DNA from: Candidatus Woesearchaeota archaeon | GTDB lineage: Archaea; Nanobdellota; Nanobdellia; SCGC-AAA011-G17; JACPNG01 | Direction: 5' to 3' | Length of the DNA: 28,355 bases | NCBI GenBank assembly: GCA_964491045.1 | Contig: CAZBFA010000001.1 | Coordinates: 1-28,355, forward strand | Shown here: positions 10,136-17,962 of the stretch, piece after piece | How positions within the stretch are numbered: the stretch's first letter is position 1 | How the letters are laid out: every line of letters starts with the position of its first letter | Position numbers and translations under genes: made by a program | Notes under the pieces: model-generated | What the model was told of the DNA's origin: nothing | The model's input: the letters and a program-made list of their open reading frames with translations, nothing else | Databases searched by the model: none

Positions 10136-11326
10136 ATGATAATACTTTTCATCAGCATTGTGCTTCTTGGAGTTATTATTGGAATAATCACAGGCCTGAT
10201 GCCTGGAATCCATATAAATCTCGTTGCATCATTTATTGCATTTATCCTTCCATTGATGGCAATAGACCCATTGATTGCTGTAATCCTTATCTTGTCAATA
10301 TCAATCACCCATATATTCCTTGATTTTATACCAACAACATTCCTTGGAGTGCCTACACCAGATAATTCAACATTTCTTCTCCCCTCGCATGAATTATTGT
10401 TGAAAGGCAGGGCATATGAAGCAATTTTTCTCTCAACTTTTGGCTGCCTGATAGGAATAATTCTGGTTTCAGCAGTTTCTCCATTATTGTCTTTGAAGGT
10501 TGAAAAAGCCTATGCCCTAATCAGTGAATTCATCCCTTACTTGCTGATTGCAGCATTGCTTGTTCTTTTGTTGAAGGAAAAAGACAAGGCATGGGCATTT
10601 ATAGTTGTATTCATGTCAGCAATATTCGGTATTGTGTCATTTGGTTTAAGCATAAAAGAGGCCTTATTTCCAATGTTTTCCGGATTGTTTGGAATAAGCT
10701 CCCTGATTGCAAGCAGAAGTTATAAGTCAAATATCCCTGAGCAAAAGATAACAAAGGTAAAGCTGGCCAAGAAAACCCCAATGCTTGTCCTGACAGGATT
10801 TTTTGCTTCATTGCTGGTTGGTTTTCTTCCTGGCCTTGGCCCGGCCCAGGCATCAATAATAGCAACATCATTTTCAAAAAATCAGGAAAGAAAGGATTAT
10901 ATTATAATTACCGCAGCAATCAATTCAATTGTGATGATTCTTGCCGTTATTGCATTGTTCACTATAAACAAATCAAGAAATGGGGCTATAGCAATAATCT
11001 CGGAGATATTCCCAAAGAATCTATCATGGCAGCATTTTGCATTATTCCTGGCAGTCATCTTGTTTGCCTCAGGAATTGCTGCAATTGCAACAATTTTTAC
11101 TGCAAAATACTTTGTAAAGATATCCAAAAAAGTCAATTATGCAGCTCTTTCCATCTCTGTAATTGCCATCATAGTCATTTTGGTCTTGCTGCTCTCAAAA
11201 CTGGCTGGCCTTCTTATACTATTTGTCGGAACTTCGATAGGCTTGATTCCCATATTAAAAAAAGTCAGTAGAAATCATCTGATGGCCTGCCTGATAGTGC
11301 CCATAATATTATACTATTTGCTTTGA
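10136..11326 (+). CDS. Tripartite tricarboxylate transporter TctA-like (archaeal DUF112) membrane protein
   Basis: GIITGLMPGIHIN, H.FLDFIP..FLGVP, LP.HELLLKG.AY, GLFGIS, LPGLGPAQA and SRNG. TATA at 10109-10116 supports ATG 10136. Confidence 0.85.
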   Translation: MIILFISIVLLGVIIGIITGLMPGIHINLVASFIAFILPLMAIDPLIAVILILSISITHIFLDFIPTTFLGVPTPDNSTFLLPSHELLLKGRAYEAIFLSTFGCLIGIILVSAVSPLLSLKVEKAYALISEFIPYLLIAALLVLLLKEKDKAWAFIVVFMSAIFGIVSFGLSIKEALFPMFSGLFGISSLIASRSYKSNIPEQKITKVKLAKKTPMLVLTGFFASLLVGFLPGLGPAQASIIATSFSKNQERKDYIIITAAINSIVMILAVIALFTINKSRNGAIAIISEIFPKNLSWQHFALFLAVILFASGIAAIATIFTAKYFVKISKKVNYAALSISVIAIIVILVLLLSKLAGLLILFVGTSIGLIPILKKVSRNHLMACLIVPIILYYLL

Positions 11327-14300
11327 GCAAACCACTTGACAAGCCCTTCCTGCTTTTCAGGGTCCTTGCCAAAAATGCTCTCTATTCTTCTCTTGGTTAT
11401 CTGCAAAACCTGGTTTAAGTATGGTGGCAGGGCATATTTTTCAGCAAGCTCCAGGCTGGGCTCAACATATTTTACAATGCTCCCTTCGGCAACTGTAAAA
11501 AGAAGCCTTCCGCTGCATTTCAAGCATCTTCCAGCCAATGGAGGCCTCCTGTATTTTTCATTGCAGTCAACGCATCTGAACTGCTGCTGCGAGAACTGCC
11601 TTAAGTTTCCTTTAATGTCCCTCATGAAATGCCTTTCTATCAGCAGTCTTGCAACATCATTTTCTTCAACACACCTTAATCTTTCAGCTAATTTCATCTG
11701 GCCATTTACCTTGTCCATCATTGTTGGTATTGACTTGTATGCGCTGCACCTTACTCCCGCATTTAAATCATCAGTGTCATGCGTGAATCCAAGGCCTTCA
11801 TATTCCTTGAATGTTCCAAGGTTATCCCCCAGCTGCTCTATCTTGATTTCTTTTGGGCTTTTATATTCCAATGCGGCTTCGTAAAGCTCCAAAGGATATT
11901 TCCAGACAACATCCATGTCAAAGACCATATTGTCAACCTCTTTGGGTATCAGTGTGGACGTTAAAACCAACGGCGCATCCTGGGTAACACCTCTCCTTTT
12001 TGGCAAAAATTTCCTGGAGAAATTAATCAGAGTGTCAAGCAGCAATATCACACAAGCCTCATCTCCGTCACATCTTGTATTAAGAATTTGTTCTCCCCAC
12101 AAAATATTTTTATCTCCTTCATCTTTCCATTCTATTTCTACACAATAAGAGTGCTGAATGTCTCTTATCTTTTCTACTTTTTTTACATAATCAACAACTA
12201 TGTCCCCATAACCTTCAAGAAAAACATGGTTGCCATTATAGGACGTTTTTCTTTGTTCAATCGGTTTCAGCTGACTTAATTTTTTACTTTTTGATTTATC
12301 TGTTAAAATAAAGAGTTTTTTTAGCTTAAATGCGTCTTTTCCATAATAAACTAAATGATGTAAAATATGTTTCTTTGGTTTTTTTGCTAATCTTTTATAA
12401 ATTTCTAGAACAGTCCTGCCTGGCATCCTTAATTTTGTTGAAGAAAATCTTGAAACTGCACCAAATCTGCTTAGCAATAAAGAGATGTCATTCAACAATT
12501 GACGGTTAACTGAATAAAAAACACATGAATTATTCTCTGGAACTACAGTTCCATCGCCATCAAAGAAAGCAGAGACATATGCCTTTATGATATTAGTTGA
12601 AGATCCAAAAAGAAATGGCGGAACTTTCTTGGTTTATGCATTGGAACCAGCATTAAAACAATAATTAAAGATAAGGTAAGGCAATTTATGGCAAATAGAT
12701 ATCTTTGTATTATCTTCTTCCAAGACAGGAGAGAGCCCAAAGACTTTCTTTATTAAGCAAGCTATTCTTCTTTGGATATCGGTGTTTCCTATTCTAAAAC
12801 TAATCTGTGTTACTGTAAATGTTTGTCGAGAGTGCCCTTCCGCCGCATAATAACCAAGAAGCGATGCAAGAGAATTATCTATTTTAAAATGGATATTATA
12901 TCTAACTTTACTGAAAGATGTACCCAGATAAATGTGTTTAGGCAGGTTGTAAGTCGCAAGCTTTAGGTCTACTAGTTTTTTAAAACAGTCAAGCGGCATA
13001 TCAGAATACCAATGATAAAGACTTTTCTTTCCTTTTAATGCCAATAAAGAGATTATCTTTTTTGACCCTAATTTAGAGAGCAGTAATCGAAAAAATTTGT
13101 GCCCGCCGCGTAATCTGATTTTTCGTTGTTCTTTTAGGGGGACATTCTCTGCCAAAGATTTAACTAAATTTATTTGTAGAACAGCATTAATTTTTGGTTT
13201 AAAATTCTCCAATAGCGCAACCTTATCACTTACAGCAGCCATTGAAGCATTTTTTAATCGGAACTTATTTGTATCATCCAAAAACATAAATTTATGGGTA
13301 GGAGTCATAATAAACTGCCTATTTGTTGCAGTAGTTATTTTGATCCATGTTTTATTTTTTGGGCCTTTGATAAAATATTTTACTTTCTTTTCTTTAAAAT
13401 TTTTTGTAAGTGGATCTACCCCATAAACAAAAAGGGATTCTTTATTTTCAATACGCAAGGTACCGGCACCGTCGATGATTTTAGTTTTAGCACCTTTTTG
13501 TATTAAGTCTTCTACATAAGGCCCGATTTCAACATGATTTACCTGTTTATGATTAATATTGTAATAAACAAATTTAGTGGTAGGAAAAACACAGTCTCTC
13601 CTAAGAATGCTGTGCATCAGCGGGTGTGCAAAAAAACCTTGTGTTTTTGAAAAGCCAATTATTCTTGCAACCATTCCTGCTGATGTATGCGGGCTCATTG
13701 CAACAACACAATGCCCGACGAGATCATTTTTATTTTTCAGATTGTAAAAAGGCTCTTGCTTGTACAGGTGAACCAGCAGATCATCCATGAATTTTGAAAC
13801 ACGAAACAATATTTCATCAGCGCCTTCTTCAACGCTTTCCTTGCAGGAAGGCAATATCACATCCTGGCATTTCAGCTCCAGAATCTGCTCTTCAGTCTTA
13901 AGTTCGTTTCCATGAATGTCCCTCATATAGCCAAGCTCTTTTAACTTTTCAATTGATGTTCCTATTTCTTTTGGCTTGAAATGGGTTATTGCCATTTCTG
14001 TCATGTCATACCTTATTGTTCCTTCCCTGTTTACATATAGCCTGTGCTTGCTTCTCAGAATTCCTTTGATTAAGTTTTCAGGTATTGCATCAGGGTTAAA
14101 AACGCCCTTGACGCCTTTTATCATCTCGCCGTATTCAGTAATTCCAATTTCATTCAGGGCTTTTCTATAATAATAGTTTATGTCTATCTCCTGCATCTTG
14201 TGGCTGGCAGATTCATGCATGCTGCATGGTTCTTCATAAGTTTTTTTGCAGTGGTAGCATGCATATCTCTTATCTGTTCTGGCTCCGCATTCCTCGCAGA

Positions 14301-16314
14301 TATTATAGATTGTTTCTTTGCTGCAGGCCTTACAGAGCATCAATGGGAAATCAGAGGCAACTTTGCCTTTTTTCAGCGCCTCCTGCATATTTCTCATTTT
14401 GCCCCCTTCCTTGCCGACAGGAAACAAAACCTGGGGGCTGCCTTTTAACCTTCTTATTTTTGCTTTTTCAGGCCTCCCCATTCTCGCTCCTATGAATGTT
14501 CCTGATTTGTCCCTTATTTTGACTCCTGCAAGCTTGTTAACAATGCTTAAGACCTCTTTGTCATCATCAAAGGTAAATATGTCAAGGTGCCTGAAATGAA
14601 AGATTAGCGATTTTGCATCCTCTCCAGCAATCACAACATTTTCCCTTGCAACAACCCTGTGAGGAATGCCCAAAAGTTCCAGTACCCGTTTAGGATCAAT
14701 AGACACATCAATTGGAACCTTAGCCGGCAGTCTCAAAATTATTTCCTTTTCAGATATCTCTGCAGTCTTGTACCAATTCAGGAAACTTAGAAACTGCTCA
14801 GTGCCTATGTCTTTCCAATGGTATGTATACCTTGGATGCATGGGAACATCAAACTGTATTGCTATCCTGCTTGCGTCTTCAAAACTTAGCTTCTTGTATG
14901 GATTCTCAATTATTTCCTTGACCAAGGTATCATCGCATTTTAACTTTGCCAATTCAGCAGCATGCCATTCTTCGTTGTAGCCGCAGGGCACTAATTTATG
15001 AGCCCTATTGAAAAAATCGCCATAATTTACCAATAAATCACCCAAGAACAATATTTCCTCAATATCGTTTCTTATCTTCATTGCCTGCTCAGCAGTCTCA
15101 ATTAAAATAACCTCTCCGCTGTTCAGTTTCACAATAGGCCCTTCCAGCTTGTCGCATACGCTGAGAACGGTTGACTTCCCGGGCCTTTCTGTCTTGAGCT
15201 GGGTCCCGATTGCAAGGTAATCATCCAGAACAGCCATTGTTGCAGGATGCACTGCGTCAGATGAAAATCCAGATGTTCTTGTCCTTCCATACCTTAATCT
15301 AAATCCCCCAATTGCCATTGGATAAGTCAATATGGGCCTTCCAGCAACTAAATCTTTTATGAAATTGTAATCAGGCATCAGCTTAACATTTTCATCAGCA
15401 GTCTTTTCTTTGCTGGCGCTCGCCCTTATCATCTTTTGCAGCTTGATGAAGTCCTCCAGAAATTTCCAGTGCTCCAGCCCAAAATCATTGCCCCATGATT
15501 TGAGCTGATTCCATAATTTAGGCGCTTTTGCGCACAAGCATTCTCCAAGAACCAGGCAAACCCCGTTCCTTATCCTGTTGGTTTCAATCCTGTCAATATC
15601 CTTGTAATTGCTTACCTCTTTTTCTTCGCTTGGATCGCCGTCAATTTGCACAGGCAGCCTTTCAACCAAAAATTTTGCTTCTTCCTCGCTTGGCAGATAC
15701 TGAAGATTGGTTATCTTCTCATGATAATCATAAAGCTCAGCCACCATTCGTTTCACTTCCATCTCGCTAGGGTCGTAAGCATTTAACCCCATTATGCACC
15801 TCACGTAATCAGCAATCAGCACAGAAACAGCGCCCGCAGTGCCGCCAGCGCTTCTTATGGGGCCAGAATAGAATAAAGCAACATAATCCTTTCCATCTTT
15901 TCTTTTCCTGAATTTTAGCTCAACAAAACCTTCTAGCGGGCTTGCAACAACACCAACAGTTATATATGCAATTCCAACTCGAATTCCAACCTCCATCGCC
16001 TCTTTCTTGCTTGAAAATTGGCAGAATTTTTCTCTTGCAGTTTCTTCCGCAAGCTTCAATGCAACTCTCCAGTCCTGCACGCCGTATATTTTCTCTAATT
16101 CCATCAATCGCTCAATGATGTTGCTGTCTTTTATCTGCGGCGCAACAATTGATATTATTCCAACAACTCTTTCGGCCATATTTTTTGCAAGCGGTATCTC
16201 AACAGCAGGTATGGGGTCATGCCCGATGGCTCTTGCTTTTCTCGCGGCATCATAGGCTTTTGCTATATTCCTGTTTATCTCATCAAAATATTCTTTCATT
16301 TTCTCAATCTTCAC
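11314..16314 (-). CDS. polC: DNA polymerase D large subunit DP2, containing an intein with one in-frame TAA (12634-12636)
   Basis: GPIRSAGGTA, GGFRLRYGR, FIGARMGRPEKAK, Zn-finger Cys clusters, catalytic CDGDE, C-terminal CxxC...CxxC and PIP-like QEGLVKWF. Track ORFs 12634..16314 and 11314..12498 share a frame and the 45 codons between them are open. Exteins are 907 + 252 aa. Confidence 0.93.
12073..13593 (-). mobile_element. Intein with LAGLIDADG homing endonuclease at RRD|CDGDE of DP2 (507 codons including the TAA)
   Basis: Starts CVFPTT (block A), TPTH (block B), LLGYYAAEG (block C), AFFDGDG (block E), SYCVEIE (block F), ends EQILNTR. Visibly more AT-rich than the flanking extein DNA. Confidence 0.9.
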
Positions 16315-17962
16315 CAGAAAAATTCATGATTTTCACTTCCCTGGTTTTTAAATTCAATATTGGAACTCTTCCCGGATTTGGATTATTCCCCGTCTTTTCC
16401 TGAAATGAAGTTTTTCCCTGAAAGCAGCTGCAATTTATCAATAGGACATTATTATAATTAACAACATCAGATCTATGCATCTCTCCAGATACAAGTATAT
16501 CAGGCAGCTTGTCTATGAAAAAAGGATCTTCTTCAGTATTTGGCATGTAAACGGTTGATGAATGTGTTGGCGCAAGATGCCTTTTCTGCAGCAAAAATTT
16601 TATCACAGTTGCAGGATTGTCCCTTGCTGAAGCCTGCCTCAACGAATCAACTTCGTCAATGTAATAATGATAGCTTGCCCCATGGTACATTAGAACATTG
16701 AATCCCTCAAAATCTTTTTTGGAATGTATGTTAACCATGCAGGGATTGCTGACCATAATCAGGTTTGGCAGCGCATACAATGCGTGCGCAAATTCCTTGT
16801 CCAATGGGGGCTGTGGTTCGGCTGCCCTTATTGAATCATGCTGCCCTGGAGAGATTATTATTTTGATGTCTTTTCTTATTAGGCTTATGCATTCGGCGGC
16901 GGCATTGTACTGCTGCATTATGTCGCGGAAAAGCAGTTCTTTTTCCTGCCCGGGATAAACTCCAACACCCTCAACAATATCACCGATAATAAACAAATAC
17001 TTCACTTTTGAAGACACTCTTTTTTGCAGGAAACTTCCGCTGTTTCCATTCAGCCAGTCAATAAATTCCAGGAATTCTTTTTTCATGAACAGCTTGCTGC
17101 CAAAATGAAGGTCGCTTATGAAAGCAACGCATGCCTCATCATCGCATTTCTTCAGCTCCTTTGTAAGAGGCACATCGGGGAATATTATCTGTGTTGCAAA
17201 AATTACTCTTCCCCCATAAACGCCAGTAATTCCTAGCACTTCATCGCACACAACATTTTTTCCTGCCTCAGCGGCTTTTCCCTCTTTATTTATTAAAACC
17301 TCTATTGTTCCTGTCGGGTCTTCTACTTTCAGGATTATATTCCCATTTTTTGTAGTCCTCTTGTCATGCACAATCCCTATCAATGCAACTGCTTCTTTTT
17401 CCTGCTTGCCTGCTATCCTGTTTATCGAAACAAGTCCCTGCAGCTCTTGCCTTGATTGCAATAGGTTTTTGATCAGATTATACCTGAGCTTGAAATATTC
17501 AACAAAGTCTTCCACCCCTCTTTTTTTGGGCTCATCTTTATATTCTTTAAGCACGATCACGCTGCTGTAATTTTCATTGGTCTTCTCTTCTTTGATATTA
17601 ACTTTCTCTTCATGCTTTACTTCTTCCAGCATCTTGTCAAGCTTTTTTTTCTCGCCAGTATGGTAACCCAATAGGTCTAGAAATACCTTGTAAGCTTCAT
17701 CATTTTTCCCTTTTTCAATCAGCACCCGTGCCTTTTCAAATTCATTCCAGTTGATGTCAATTTTTGCAAGATTATCTTCTTGCAATTTTGGCATTACCTT
17801 TATCAGGTCCTGGTTTAGCACAGACAATCGGCCATTCAGCTCAGCATCTTTTTTCAAGGAAATTAATAGCTCGGAGGAATCCTTCCCGTCAAACTCATCC
17901 GCAATGTCTGGTGACAGCAAAAATCCGTTTTCAATGAATAGTTTTATGTTTTCTTTGTTCAT
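16304..17962 (-). CDS. polB: DNA polymerase D small subunit DP1 (proofreading exonuclease subunit; not a family-B polymerase)
   Basis: OB domain (EDPTG), ISDLHFGS, GDIVEG.G.YPGQ, PGQHD..R.AEPQP, YHGAS, LLQKRHLAPTH. Overlaps cdc6 (ATGA) and DP2. Confidence 0.93.
   Translation of the reverse strand: MNKENIKLFIENGFLLSPDIADEFDGKDSSELLISLKKDAELNGRLSVLNQDLIKVMPKLQEDNLAKIDINWNEFEKARVLIEKGKNDEAYKVFLDLLGYHTGEKKKLDKMLEEVKHEEKVNIKEEKTNENYSSVIVLKEYKDEPKKRGVEDFVEYFKLRYNLIKNLLQSRQELQGLVSINRIAGKQEKEAVALIGIVHDKRTTKNGNIILKVEDPTGTIEVLINKEGKAAEAGKNVVCDEVLGITGVYGGRVIFATQIIFPDVPLTKELKKCDDEACVAFISDLHFGSKLFMKKEFLEFIDWLNGNSGSFLQKRVSSKVKYLFIIGDIVEGVGVYPGQEKELLFRDIMQQYNAAAECISLIRKDIKIIISPGQHDSIRAAEPQPPLDKEFAHALYALPNLIMVSNPCMVNIHSKKDFEGFNVLMYHGASYHYYIDEVDSLRQASARDNPATVIKFLLQKRHLAPTHSSTVYMPNTEEDPFFIDKLPDILVSGEMHRSDVVNYNNVLLINCSCFQGKTSFQEKTGNNPNPGRVPILNLKTREVKIMNFSGED

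Follow-up and report, generated by a model that had tools for sequence, protein, structure and literature searches.

Arginine-terminated inteins in the catalytic loop of archaeal DNA polymerase D and a possible new route through the third step of protein splicing

Protein splicing is taught as a sequence of four steps, the third of which is the cyclization of the intein's terminal asparagine (rarely glutamine, aspartate, or glutamate). What, then, could release an intein whose last residue is arginine? The question is raised by a stretch of 28,355 nucleotides (here called the window) at positions 1 to 28,355 of contig CAZBFA010000001.1, from the Candidatus Woesearchaeota assembly GCA_964491045.1, where the gene for the large subunit (DP2) of DNA polymerase D (PolD) carries a 507-residue intein ending in Arg507, immediately before the catalytic CDGDE motif. 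The window intein is a genuine member of a conserved and mobile clade of homing-endonuclease inteins that sits in the catalytic loop of DP2, at the position also used by the Pyrococcus PolII inteins. Our comparison of these sequences suggests that it belongs to a real, selected kind of arginine-terminal intein, which probably splices through a third step that has not been described.

The intein and its junction in the window

At the C-terminal junction, the minus strand reads ATT CTT AAT ACA AGA / TGT GAC GGA GAT, translated as ..EQILNTR/CDGDE, with the terminal arginine codon AGA at 12073-12075 and the Cys+1 codon TGT at 12070-12072. A sequence-only reading of the window had reported these letters and coordinates, and a second reading of the gene against the Pfam boundaries confirmed them, along with the penultimate threonine, the terminal arginine, and the intact Cys1 and TxxH motif. 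The span that it singled out, 12070-12140, takes in intein blocks F and G. Its description of block F was correct in one respect: the usual histidine is absent, with a lysine at position 13 of the block (F:13). The cysteine at F:4, however, is not the anomaly that it was taken for, since this residue is common in inteins and shared by the Gln- and Asn-ending relatives described below; it could not be retained as an arginine-specific feature. Across inteins, Cys is the second commonest residue at this position (PMC4031507). The features of the gene, all on the minus strand, are as follows.

11314 to 16314, minus: PolD large subunit (DP2) gene, 1,666 codons plus a TAG stop, with one in-frame TAA; Pfam PolC_DP2_N, _central, and _cat
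13594 to 16314, minus: N-extein, residues 1-907, ending ..HSILRRD; Pfam catalytic-domain profile positions 6-177
12073 to 13593, minus: intein, 507 residues, Hint splicing domain with a nested LAGLIDADG homing endonuclease; Pfam Intein_splicing and LAGLIDADG_3
13570 to 13593, minus: block A, CVFPTTKF, with Cys1 (TGT at 13591-13593) as the N-terminal nucleophile; Cys1 in 54/54 homologs
13288 to 13308, minus: block B, MTPTHKF, with Thr97 and His100 forming the TxxH motif; both invariant in 54/54 homologs
12832 to 12861, minus: first LAGLIDADG motif, LLGYYAAEGH, catalytic Glu intact
12634 to 12636, minus: in-frame TAA at intein position 320, inside the endonuclease domain; Tyr in 46/54 homologs
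12547 to 12579, minus: second LAGLIDADG motif, YVSAFFDGDGT, intact
12097 to 12153, minus: block F, HSYCVEIEWKDEGDKNILW, SYCVEIEW..DKNILW, with Cys484 at F:4, Glu486 at F:6, and Lys495 in place of the usual F:13 His
12073 to 12096, minus: block G, GEQILNTR, with Asn505 at G:5, Thr506 at G:6, and Arg507, the intein's last residue, at G:7
11317 to 12072, minus: C-extein, from Cys+1 of the catalytic CDGDE (12058-12072); Pfam catalytic-domain profile positions 176-299

The insertion point lies exactly between the RRD and the CDGDE of DP2. Because the Pfam catalytic-domain profile halts at position 177 on Cys908 and restarts at position 176 on Arg1414, the exteins neither lack nor gain a residue, and homology places the intein at Cys908 to Arg1414. 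Shifted boundaries that would assign the arginine to the extein were rejected, as no other boundary leaves a nucleophile at position 1 and restores RRDCDGDE. A search of the genome against itself found a single DP2 copy, seen as two halves, in the 915-kb assembly.

Is the arginine real? The window sequence is held by one public sample, a groundwater metagenome, and the Logan contig of that source sample, an independent assembly, is identical over 11300-12213 at a k-mer depth of about 8. Reads restoring an ending in HN/C or Q/C, which the sequence-only reading had named as a finding that would overturn it, are therefore not what this contig holds, and an error of sequencing or assembly at the Arg codon was rejected on this identity and on the recurrence of the trait throughout the family. 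An odd genetic code, or a reassignment of AGA, was rejected as well: the terminal arginine is written with five different codons across the family, and TAA, TGA, and TAG are all ordinary stop codons in this genome, TAA being the commonest. Furthermore, neither the code nor the organism is odd, since the eight further inteins of the genome with readable C-terminal ends all finish in His-Asn or Gly-Asn, with Ser, Thr, or Cys as the next residue. To judge from the Logan identity and from the 89 related tails described below, all of which end in Arg, the observation is far beyond chance or error.

The host assembly is DPANN-like and 86% complete, with one DP2 and one PolB gene. For its 0.9 Mb it is rich in inteins, with at least eight besides the one in DP2 (contigs C49, C24, C65, C4, C13, C102, C21, and C2; loci L033-L040). 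Two of the intein hits fall on contigs with other genes of interest; the one on C24 shares its contig with PolB but lies several kilobases from the PolB domain match. Next to DP2, the gene for the small subunit DP1 (16304-17962, minus strand) shares 11 bases (16304-16314) with the start of DP2, a GTG, on the same strand, which suggests that both PolD subunits are encoded in one operon.

The AlphaFold2 model of the intein, built on 54 homologs, has a mean predicted local distance difference test score (pLDDT) of 95.6. VIA-align superposes residues 1-507 end to end on PI-TkoII (PDB ID 2CW7; Z 39.7), and also aligns the Pyrococcus horikoshii PolII mini-intein (7OEC, residues 1-166; Z 22.2) and the Pyrococcus abyssi PolII intein (2LCJ, residues 1-185). 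Since the alignment runs through the last residue, Arg507 sits at the place of the terminal Asn or Gln of the solved inteins. The module formed by blocks F and G has no sequence match among solved inteins and is bridged to them only by this structural alignment.

The intein has the Hint fold with adjacent termini, a position-1 nucleophile, the Thr and His of block B, and Cys+1; it is inserted in frame at a conserved host site, and its exteins are continuous once it is removed. Two things depart from class 1. The terminal residue lies outside Asn, Gln, Asp, and Glu, which are the residues known to serve the third step (PMC4031507), and the assisting histidines are replaced at both G:6 (Thr here, variable in the family) and F:13 (Lys here, Lys or Arg in the family). 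Many working inteins lack the G:6 His (PMC4031507). Apart from its last residue and the two assisting histidines, the window intein thus conforms to class 1 throughout in structure and position, and its insertion at RR(N/D)/CDGDE and its homology to the PolII inteins identify it as an allele of the PolII/DP2 active-site intein.

The clade and the in-frame stop

A protein search with the intein region retrieved about 55 DP2 proteins from metagenome-assembled genomes (MAGs) of Woesearchaeota, Pacearchaeota, and Nanoarchaeota, with 40-49% identity across the intein. Of the proteins read as far as the junction, all except P0054, which has an Asn end, finish in ..WGEQI(I/L)N-x-R/CDGDE. Another 47 loci came from a scan of species-representative genomes; 46 of them are Arg-ending, and the terminal codons of these belong to both arginine codon boxes (AGA 19, CGA 12, AGG 10, CGT 3, CGG 2). 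Arg-enders of the Thermoplasmatota form a distinct group, with the ending ..LIQ(I/V)R/CDGDED. When a profile of the last 48 residues was run against 1.84 billion representative proteins, 13 of the 14 hits were DP2 proteins at the same site, all Arg-ending, and the 14th was a low-complexity false hit; none of these 14 hits revealed an Arg-ending intein in another host protein.

The pooled set holds 89 distinct Arg-ending tails, a number that overstates the independent events, as kin are not independent. The recurrence of an Arg end at this site, which the sequence-only reading had proposed to check, is thereby established in 89/89 tails, with the Thr before it in only 44. The composition at the key positions is:

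G:7 (terminal): Arg 89, Lys 0
G:6 (position -2): Thr 44, Ala 14, Phe 9, Ile 9, Leu 4, Met 3, Val 3, Pro 2, Ser 1
G:5 (position -3): Asn 75, Gln 11, Met 1, Thr 1, Ser 1
F:13: Lys 45, Arg 44, His 0
F:6: Asp or Glu 88
F:4: Cys 89

An Asn at -3 was rejected as a universal feature, given the Arg-enders with Met, Thr, or Ser there in the search of representative proteins. Divergent Arg-enders differ in their hosts too: after the junction, P0070, P0073, and P0075 read CDGDQD, CDGEQD, and CDSDED, versus CDGDE(D/A). In the Gln- and Asn-ending relatives, F:6 is Asn or Ser and the matching stretch of block F has a His (HK, HN, or NH). Compared with these relatives, three changes travel together in the Arg-enders: Arg stands at G:7 in place of Gln or Asn, Lys or Arg at F:13 in place of His, and Asp or Glu at F:6 in place of Asn. 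Moreover, because G:7 is never Lys while F:13 exchanges Lys and Arg freely, the guanidino group itself, and not just a positive charge, appears to be required at the end of the intein.

Selection acts on both parts of the element. For 32 moderately close pairs, Nei-Gojobori ratios of nonsynonymous to synonymous substitution (dN/dS) are 0.07-0.23 for the splicing domain and 0.07-0.38 for the nested endonuclease. The endonuclease is gone from five mini-inteins of 169-205 residues, all of which retain the Arg module, and genomes with an Arg-ender have no second, intein-free DP2.

In the intein tree, a quick search made after removing the last eight residues and with long-branched outgroup rows, the Arg-enders form one clade (Shimodaira-Hasegawa-like approximate likelihood ratio test [SH-aLRT], 95) that spans DPANN and Thermoplasmatota and includes the single Asn-ender, L092/P0054. 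The neighboring group consists of Gln- and Asn-ending DP2 inteins, five of them from the same DPANN order and one from a Halobacteriales MAG. These five genomes have their intein at the identical DP2 site and end in Asn (G030, locus L032) or Gln (G035, L031; G024, L042; G019, L045; G007, L046), so that three kinds of terminal residue coexist in one lineage. The Asn-ender within the clade, from a MAG labeled Methanosarcinales but nested among DPANN sequences, ends in ..LILSSN/C, with the whole of block G and the acidic F:6 replaced. To judge by its sequence, this looks like a module swap by recombination rather than a point reversion, and it suggests that Arg is not simply exchangeable for Asn in the scaffold of the Arg clade.

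The distribution within the taxonomic family of the window is patchy, as expected for a homing element: of the 16 other genomes of this family that were searched, one has an Arg-ender (G009), one a Gln-ender (G007), and 13 no intein at the site, while the last (G016) has a DP2 fragmented across contigs at this point and therefore unreadable. Among relatives, the DP2 genes free of an intein show RRDC(D/E)GDE in 20 of 20 cases, with no two-residue spacer between the two motifs.

The window copy carries a stop codon, TAA, at 12634-12636. This codon occurs in this assembly alone among about 100 relatives; among the Arg-ending genome loci, the 45 with a complete intein reading have no in-frame stop, and the homologous proteins are continuous. 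Both motifs of the endonuclease are intact, its domain being interrupted only here. As homologs keep a Tyr at this position, the TAA can be read as a single-base change from TAT or TAC. Around it, the Logan k-mer depth is 3-4, one contig ends at 12639 with two differences near its end, and 12640-12662 is uncovered; an exact-pattern scan of metagenome contigs with the TAA codon left open gave no match. In this low-coverage bin, the TAA probably represents an error of one base, a minor allele, or a mutation of very recent origin; it is a lesion of this copy, separate from the design of the Arg intein. A split intein, or a split DP2, was rejected: relatives lack the stop (0/45), and there is no near restart, the first in-frame ATG, GTG, or TTG being a TTG 46 codons on, past the second LAGLIDADG motif. 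For the same reasons, the suggestion of the sequence-only reading that a splicing-dead intein and the TAA together make DP2 a two-chain enzyme is weak, the TAA being an ordinary stop that replaces a conserved Tyr at a depth of 3-4.

Coverage also varies along the rest of the element. Logan depth reaches 7-8 in the two exteins, as it does in roughly the outermost 50-140 bases at each end of the intein, and falls to 3-4, in short broken unitigs, in the interior (about 12213-13545). The sample may also contain a second allele whose interior differs, be it another variant of the endonuclease or a mini-intein.

Release at the arginine

How would such an intein leave its host? Steps 1 and 2 would be those of an ordinary class 1 intein, drawing on Cys1, Cys+1, and the Thr and His of block B. 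The third step would have to use chemistry undescribed for inteins, because arginine is unable to carry out the cyclization of Asn or Gln. Tentatively, and with more doubt than confidence, we propose that the Nε of Arg507 attacks the residue's own backbone carbonyl to form a six-membered δ-lactam, the expected product being a normal RRD-CDGDE polymerase. The arginine Nε is carried on Cδ, at the same side-chain distance as the attacking Nε2 of glutamine, and the ring would have the size of aminoglutarimide; lysine would need a seven-membered ring. To our knowledge, such a δ-lactam lyase reaction occurs in no protein. The co-evolved Asp/Glu at F:6 would take the proton, and the Lys/Arg at F:13 would stabilize the oxyanion. 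A single CAA-to-CGA transition in a Gln-ending ancestor probably gave rise to the clade; CGA is the second commonest of its terminal codons, and the neighboring Gln clade ends in CAA. Gln-ending PolII inteins splice through aminoglutarimide (PMC8175363, PMC4031507), and δ-lactam formation is a classic, ready side reaction of carboxyl-activated arginine (PMC7352207).

Several considerations weigh against this proposal, some of them against splicing altogether. The support is wholly comparative for every member of the family, and the window copy, with its stop codon, allows no full precursor as assembled. The geometry suggested for Glu486, Arg507, and Lys495 is conjectural. At physiological pH a guanidinium makes a very poor nucleophile, and the bond to be broken is a plain amide rather than an activated ester. 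Finally, the conservation of the arginine could reflect a structural or regulatory role in a cleaved, unligated protein.

The last point leads to the view that the intein does not splice, and either stays as a permanent insert in DP2 or cleaves only at its N terminus to give a two-chain polymerase, its arginine being kept for structural reasons. An unexcised loop insert is conceivable, given the adjacent N and C termini of a Hint domain, and this view would sit well with the absence of both histidines that assist the third step, with the lack of a sequence match for the F/G module among solved inteins, and with the unsuitability of Arg for the known third step (PMC4031507). We nevertheless consider it unlikely. 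Cys1 and the Thr and His of block B are invariant, so that the acyl-shift chemistry, at least, is under selection, and the C-terminal module is selected just as strongly, its Arg never giving way to Lys. The exteins show no co-adaptation, their RRD and CDGDE flanks being the same as in intein-free genes. In addition, a selected endonuclease and a patchy spread imply repeated invasion of naive DP2 alleles, in which an unspliced insert in the catalytic loop of the sole PolD is unlikely to survive. A cleavage-only intein in general fits poorly with the selected endonuclease, the unchanged exteins, and the strictly conserved C-terminal module.

Splicing may also be real and proceed otherwise. If the upstream amide (Asn505; Gln in Thermoplasmatota) were to cyclize, through the following Thr acting as +1 or through a long-range acyl shift from the Cys, the product would be RRD-x-R-CDGDE; the sequence-only reading had raised such splicing at the upstream Asn/Thr. 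The -3 residue is indeed Asn or Gln in 86/89 Arg-enders, versus Ser, Thr, or Val in Gln- and Asn-enders, and in the window it is followed by Thr, a legitimate nucleophile. However, the would-be +1 residue is a non-nucleophile (Ala, Phe, Ile, Leu, Met, Val, or Pro) in 44/89 tails, and the position is far more variable than one would expect beside catalytic aspartates. The supposed Asn is Gln, Thr, Ser, or Met in 14/89, three divergent Arg-enders having one of the last three; none of the 20 intein-free DP2 genes has a spacer, and in the structural alignment the Asn or Gln that ends the solved inteins is matched by Arg507, not Asn505. Splicing at the Asn/Thr bond is thus refuted, and the broader upstream-amide route is very improbable. 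Alternatively, the arginine may be an electrostatic catalyst, either of a second N-to-S acyl shift at Arg507-Cys+1 or of hydrolysis of the branched intermediate by water. In the acyl-shift variant, the N-terminal thioester would come under attack from the freed Cys+1 amine, after which hydrolysis would open the thioester between the intein and Cys+1. With Cys invariant at both +1 and F:4, thiol chemistry would be available, and a guanidinium is a good stabilizer of oxyanions and a poor nucleophile. Yet these two cysteines are as conserved in Gln- and Asn-enders, and so are not specific to the Arg clade; Lys would be expected to be tolerated, as it is at F:13, and is never terminal. We know of no intein that takes this route, and we regard electrostatic catalysis as quite improbable. 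With splicing at the upstream Asn refuted and the two-chain enzyme weak, what the evidence favors among the possibilities offered by the sequence-only reading is the remaining one, a release chemistry of a new kind.

Known inteins and the place of the arginine clade

A full-text literature search, with most subscription journals outside its reach, found no paper on Arg-terminal inteins. The case concerns a whole clade, in at least two archaeal phyla, that is still mobile and keeps its Arg under strict selection in the catalytic loop of its hosts' only PolD. If these inteins splice, the cleavage of a peptide bond by an arginine side chain, or another way of resolving the branched intermediate, would be new enzymology, and could offer a new handle for intein engineering, for instance C-terminal cleavage with a different dependence on pH or redox state. 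If they do not, PolD would have to work with an insert of 170-510 residues or as two chains, which would be equally unexpected.

The best structural matches to the whole model are PI-TkoII (2CW7) and the VMA inteins of Thermococcus and Pyrococcus (Z 33-40), which have the same plan of Hint, DNA-recognition, and LAGLIDADG domains but reside in other host genes and have canonical His-Asn ends. Class 3 inteins, defined by a WCT triplet and exemplified by the DnaB intein of mycobacteriophage Bethlehem, share Cys F:4 with the window intein. They lack a position-1 nucleophile, have Trp at B:12 and Thr at G:5, and still end in Asn. Membership of class 3 was rejected, as only F:4 is shared: B:12 is Phe102, G:5 is Asn505, and Cys1 is invariant.

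Closer are the PolII (DP2) inteins of P. abyssi, P. horikoshii, and Methanoculleus marisnigri (2LCJ, 7OEC, and 5BKH), which lie at the same RR(N/D)/CDGDE site and share Cys1, TxxH, and Cys+1. They are homologous to the window intein (profile E-values of 4e-8 to 7e-6; VIA-align Z 18-22) and likewise have a non-canonical end, a Gln that forms a six-membered ring. Their splicing has been demonstrated; it is slow, and faster with Asn (PMC4031507, PMC8175363). With their Gln ends, they retain the His of block F (those of Pyrococcus also the penultimate His), whereas the window intein has an Arg end, a Lys in place of that His, an acidic F:6, an insertion of 4-5 residues before block G, and a full LAGLIDADG domain. 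The five Gln- and Asn-enders of the same DPANN order share with it the site, the lineage, the (S/T)YC of block F, and the LAGLIDADG architecture; they differ in ending with ..Q or ..HN, in the Asn at F:6 and the His of block F, and in lacking the LW(G/H)xQ..(N/Q)xR module. Set beside these systems, the Arg-terminal PolD inteins may constitute a fourth mechanistic kind, a proposal for which we see the chances as evenly balanced, in which the triad of F:6, F:13, and G:7 would serve either an arginine guanidino nucleophile or a second acyl shift at the C-terminal junction.

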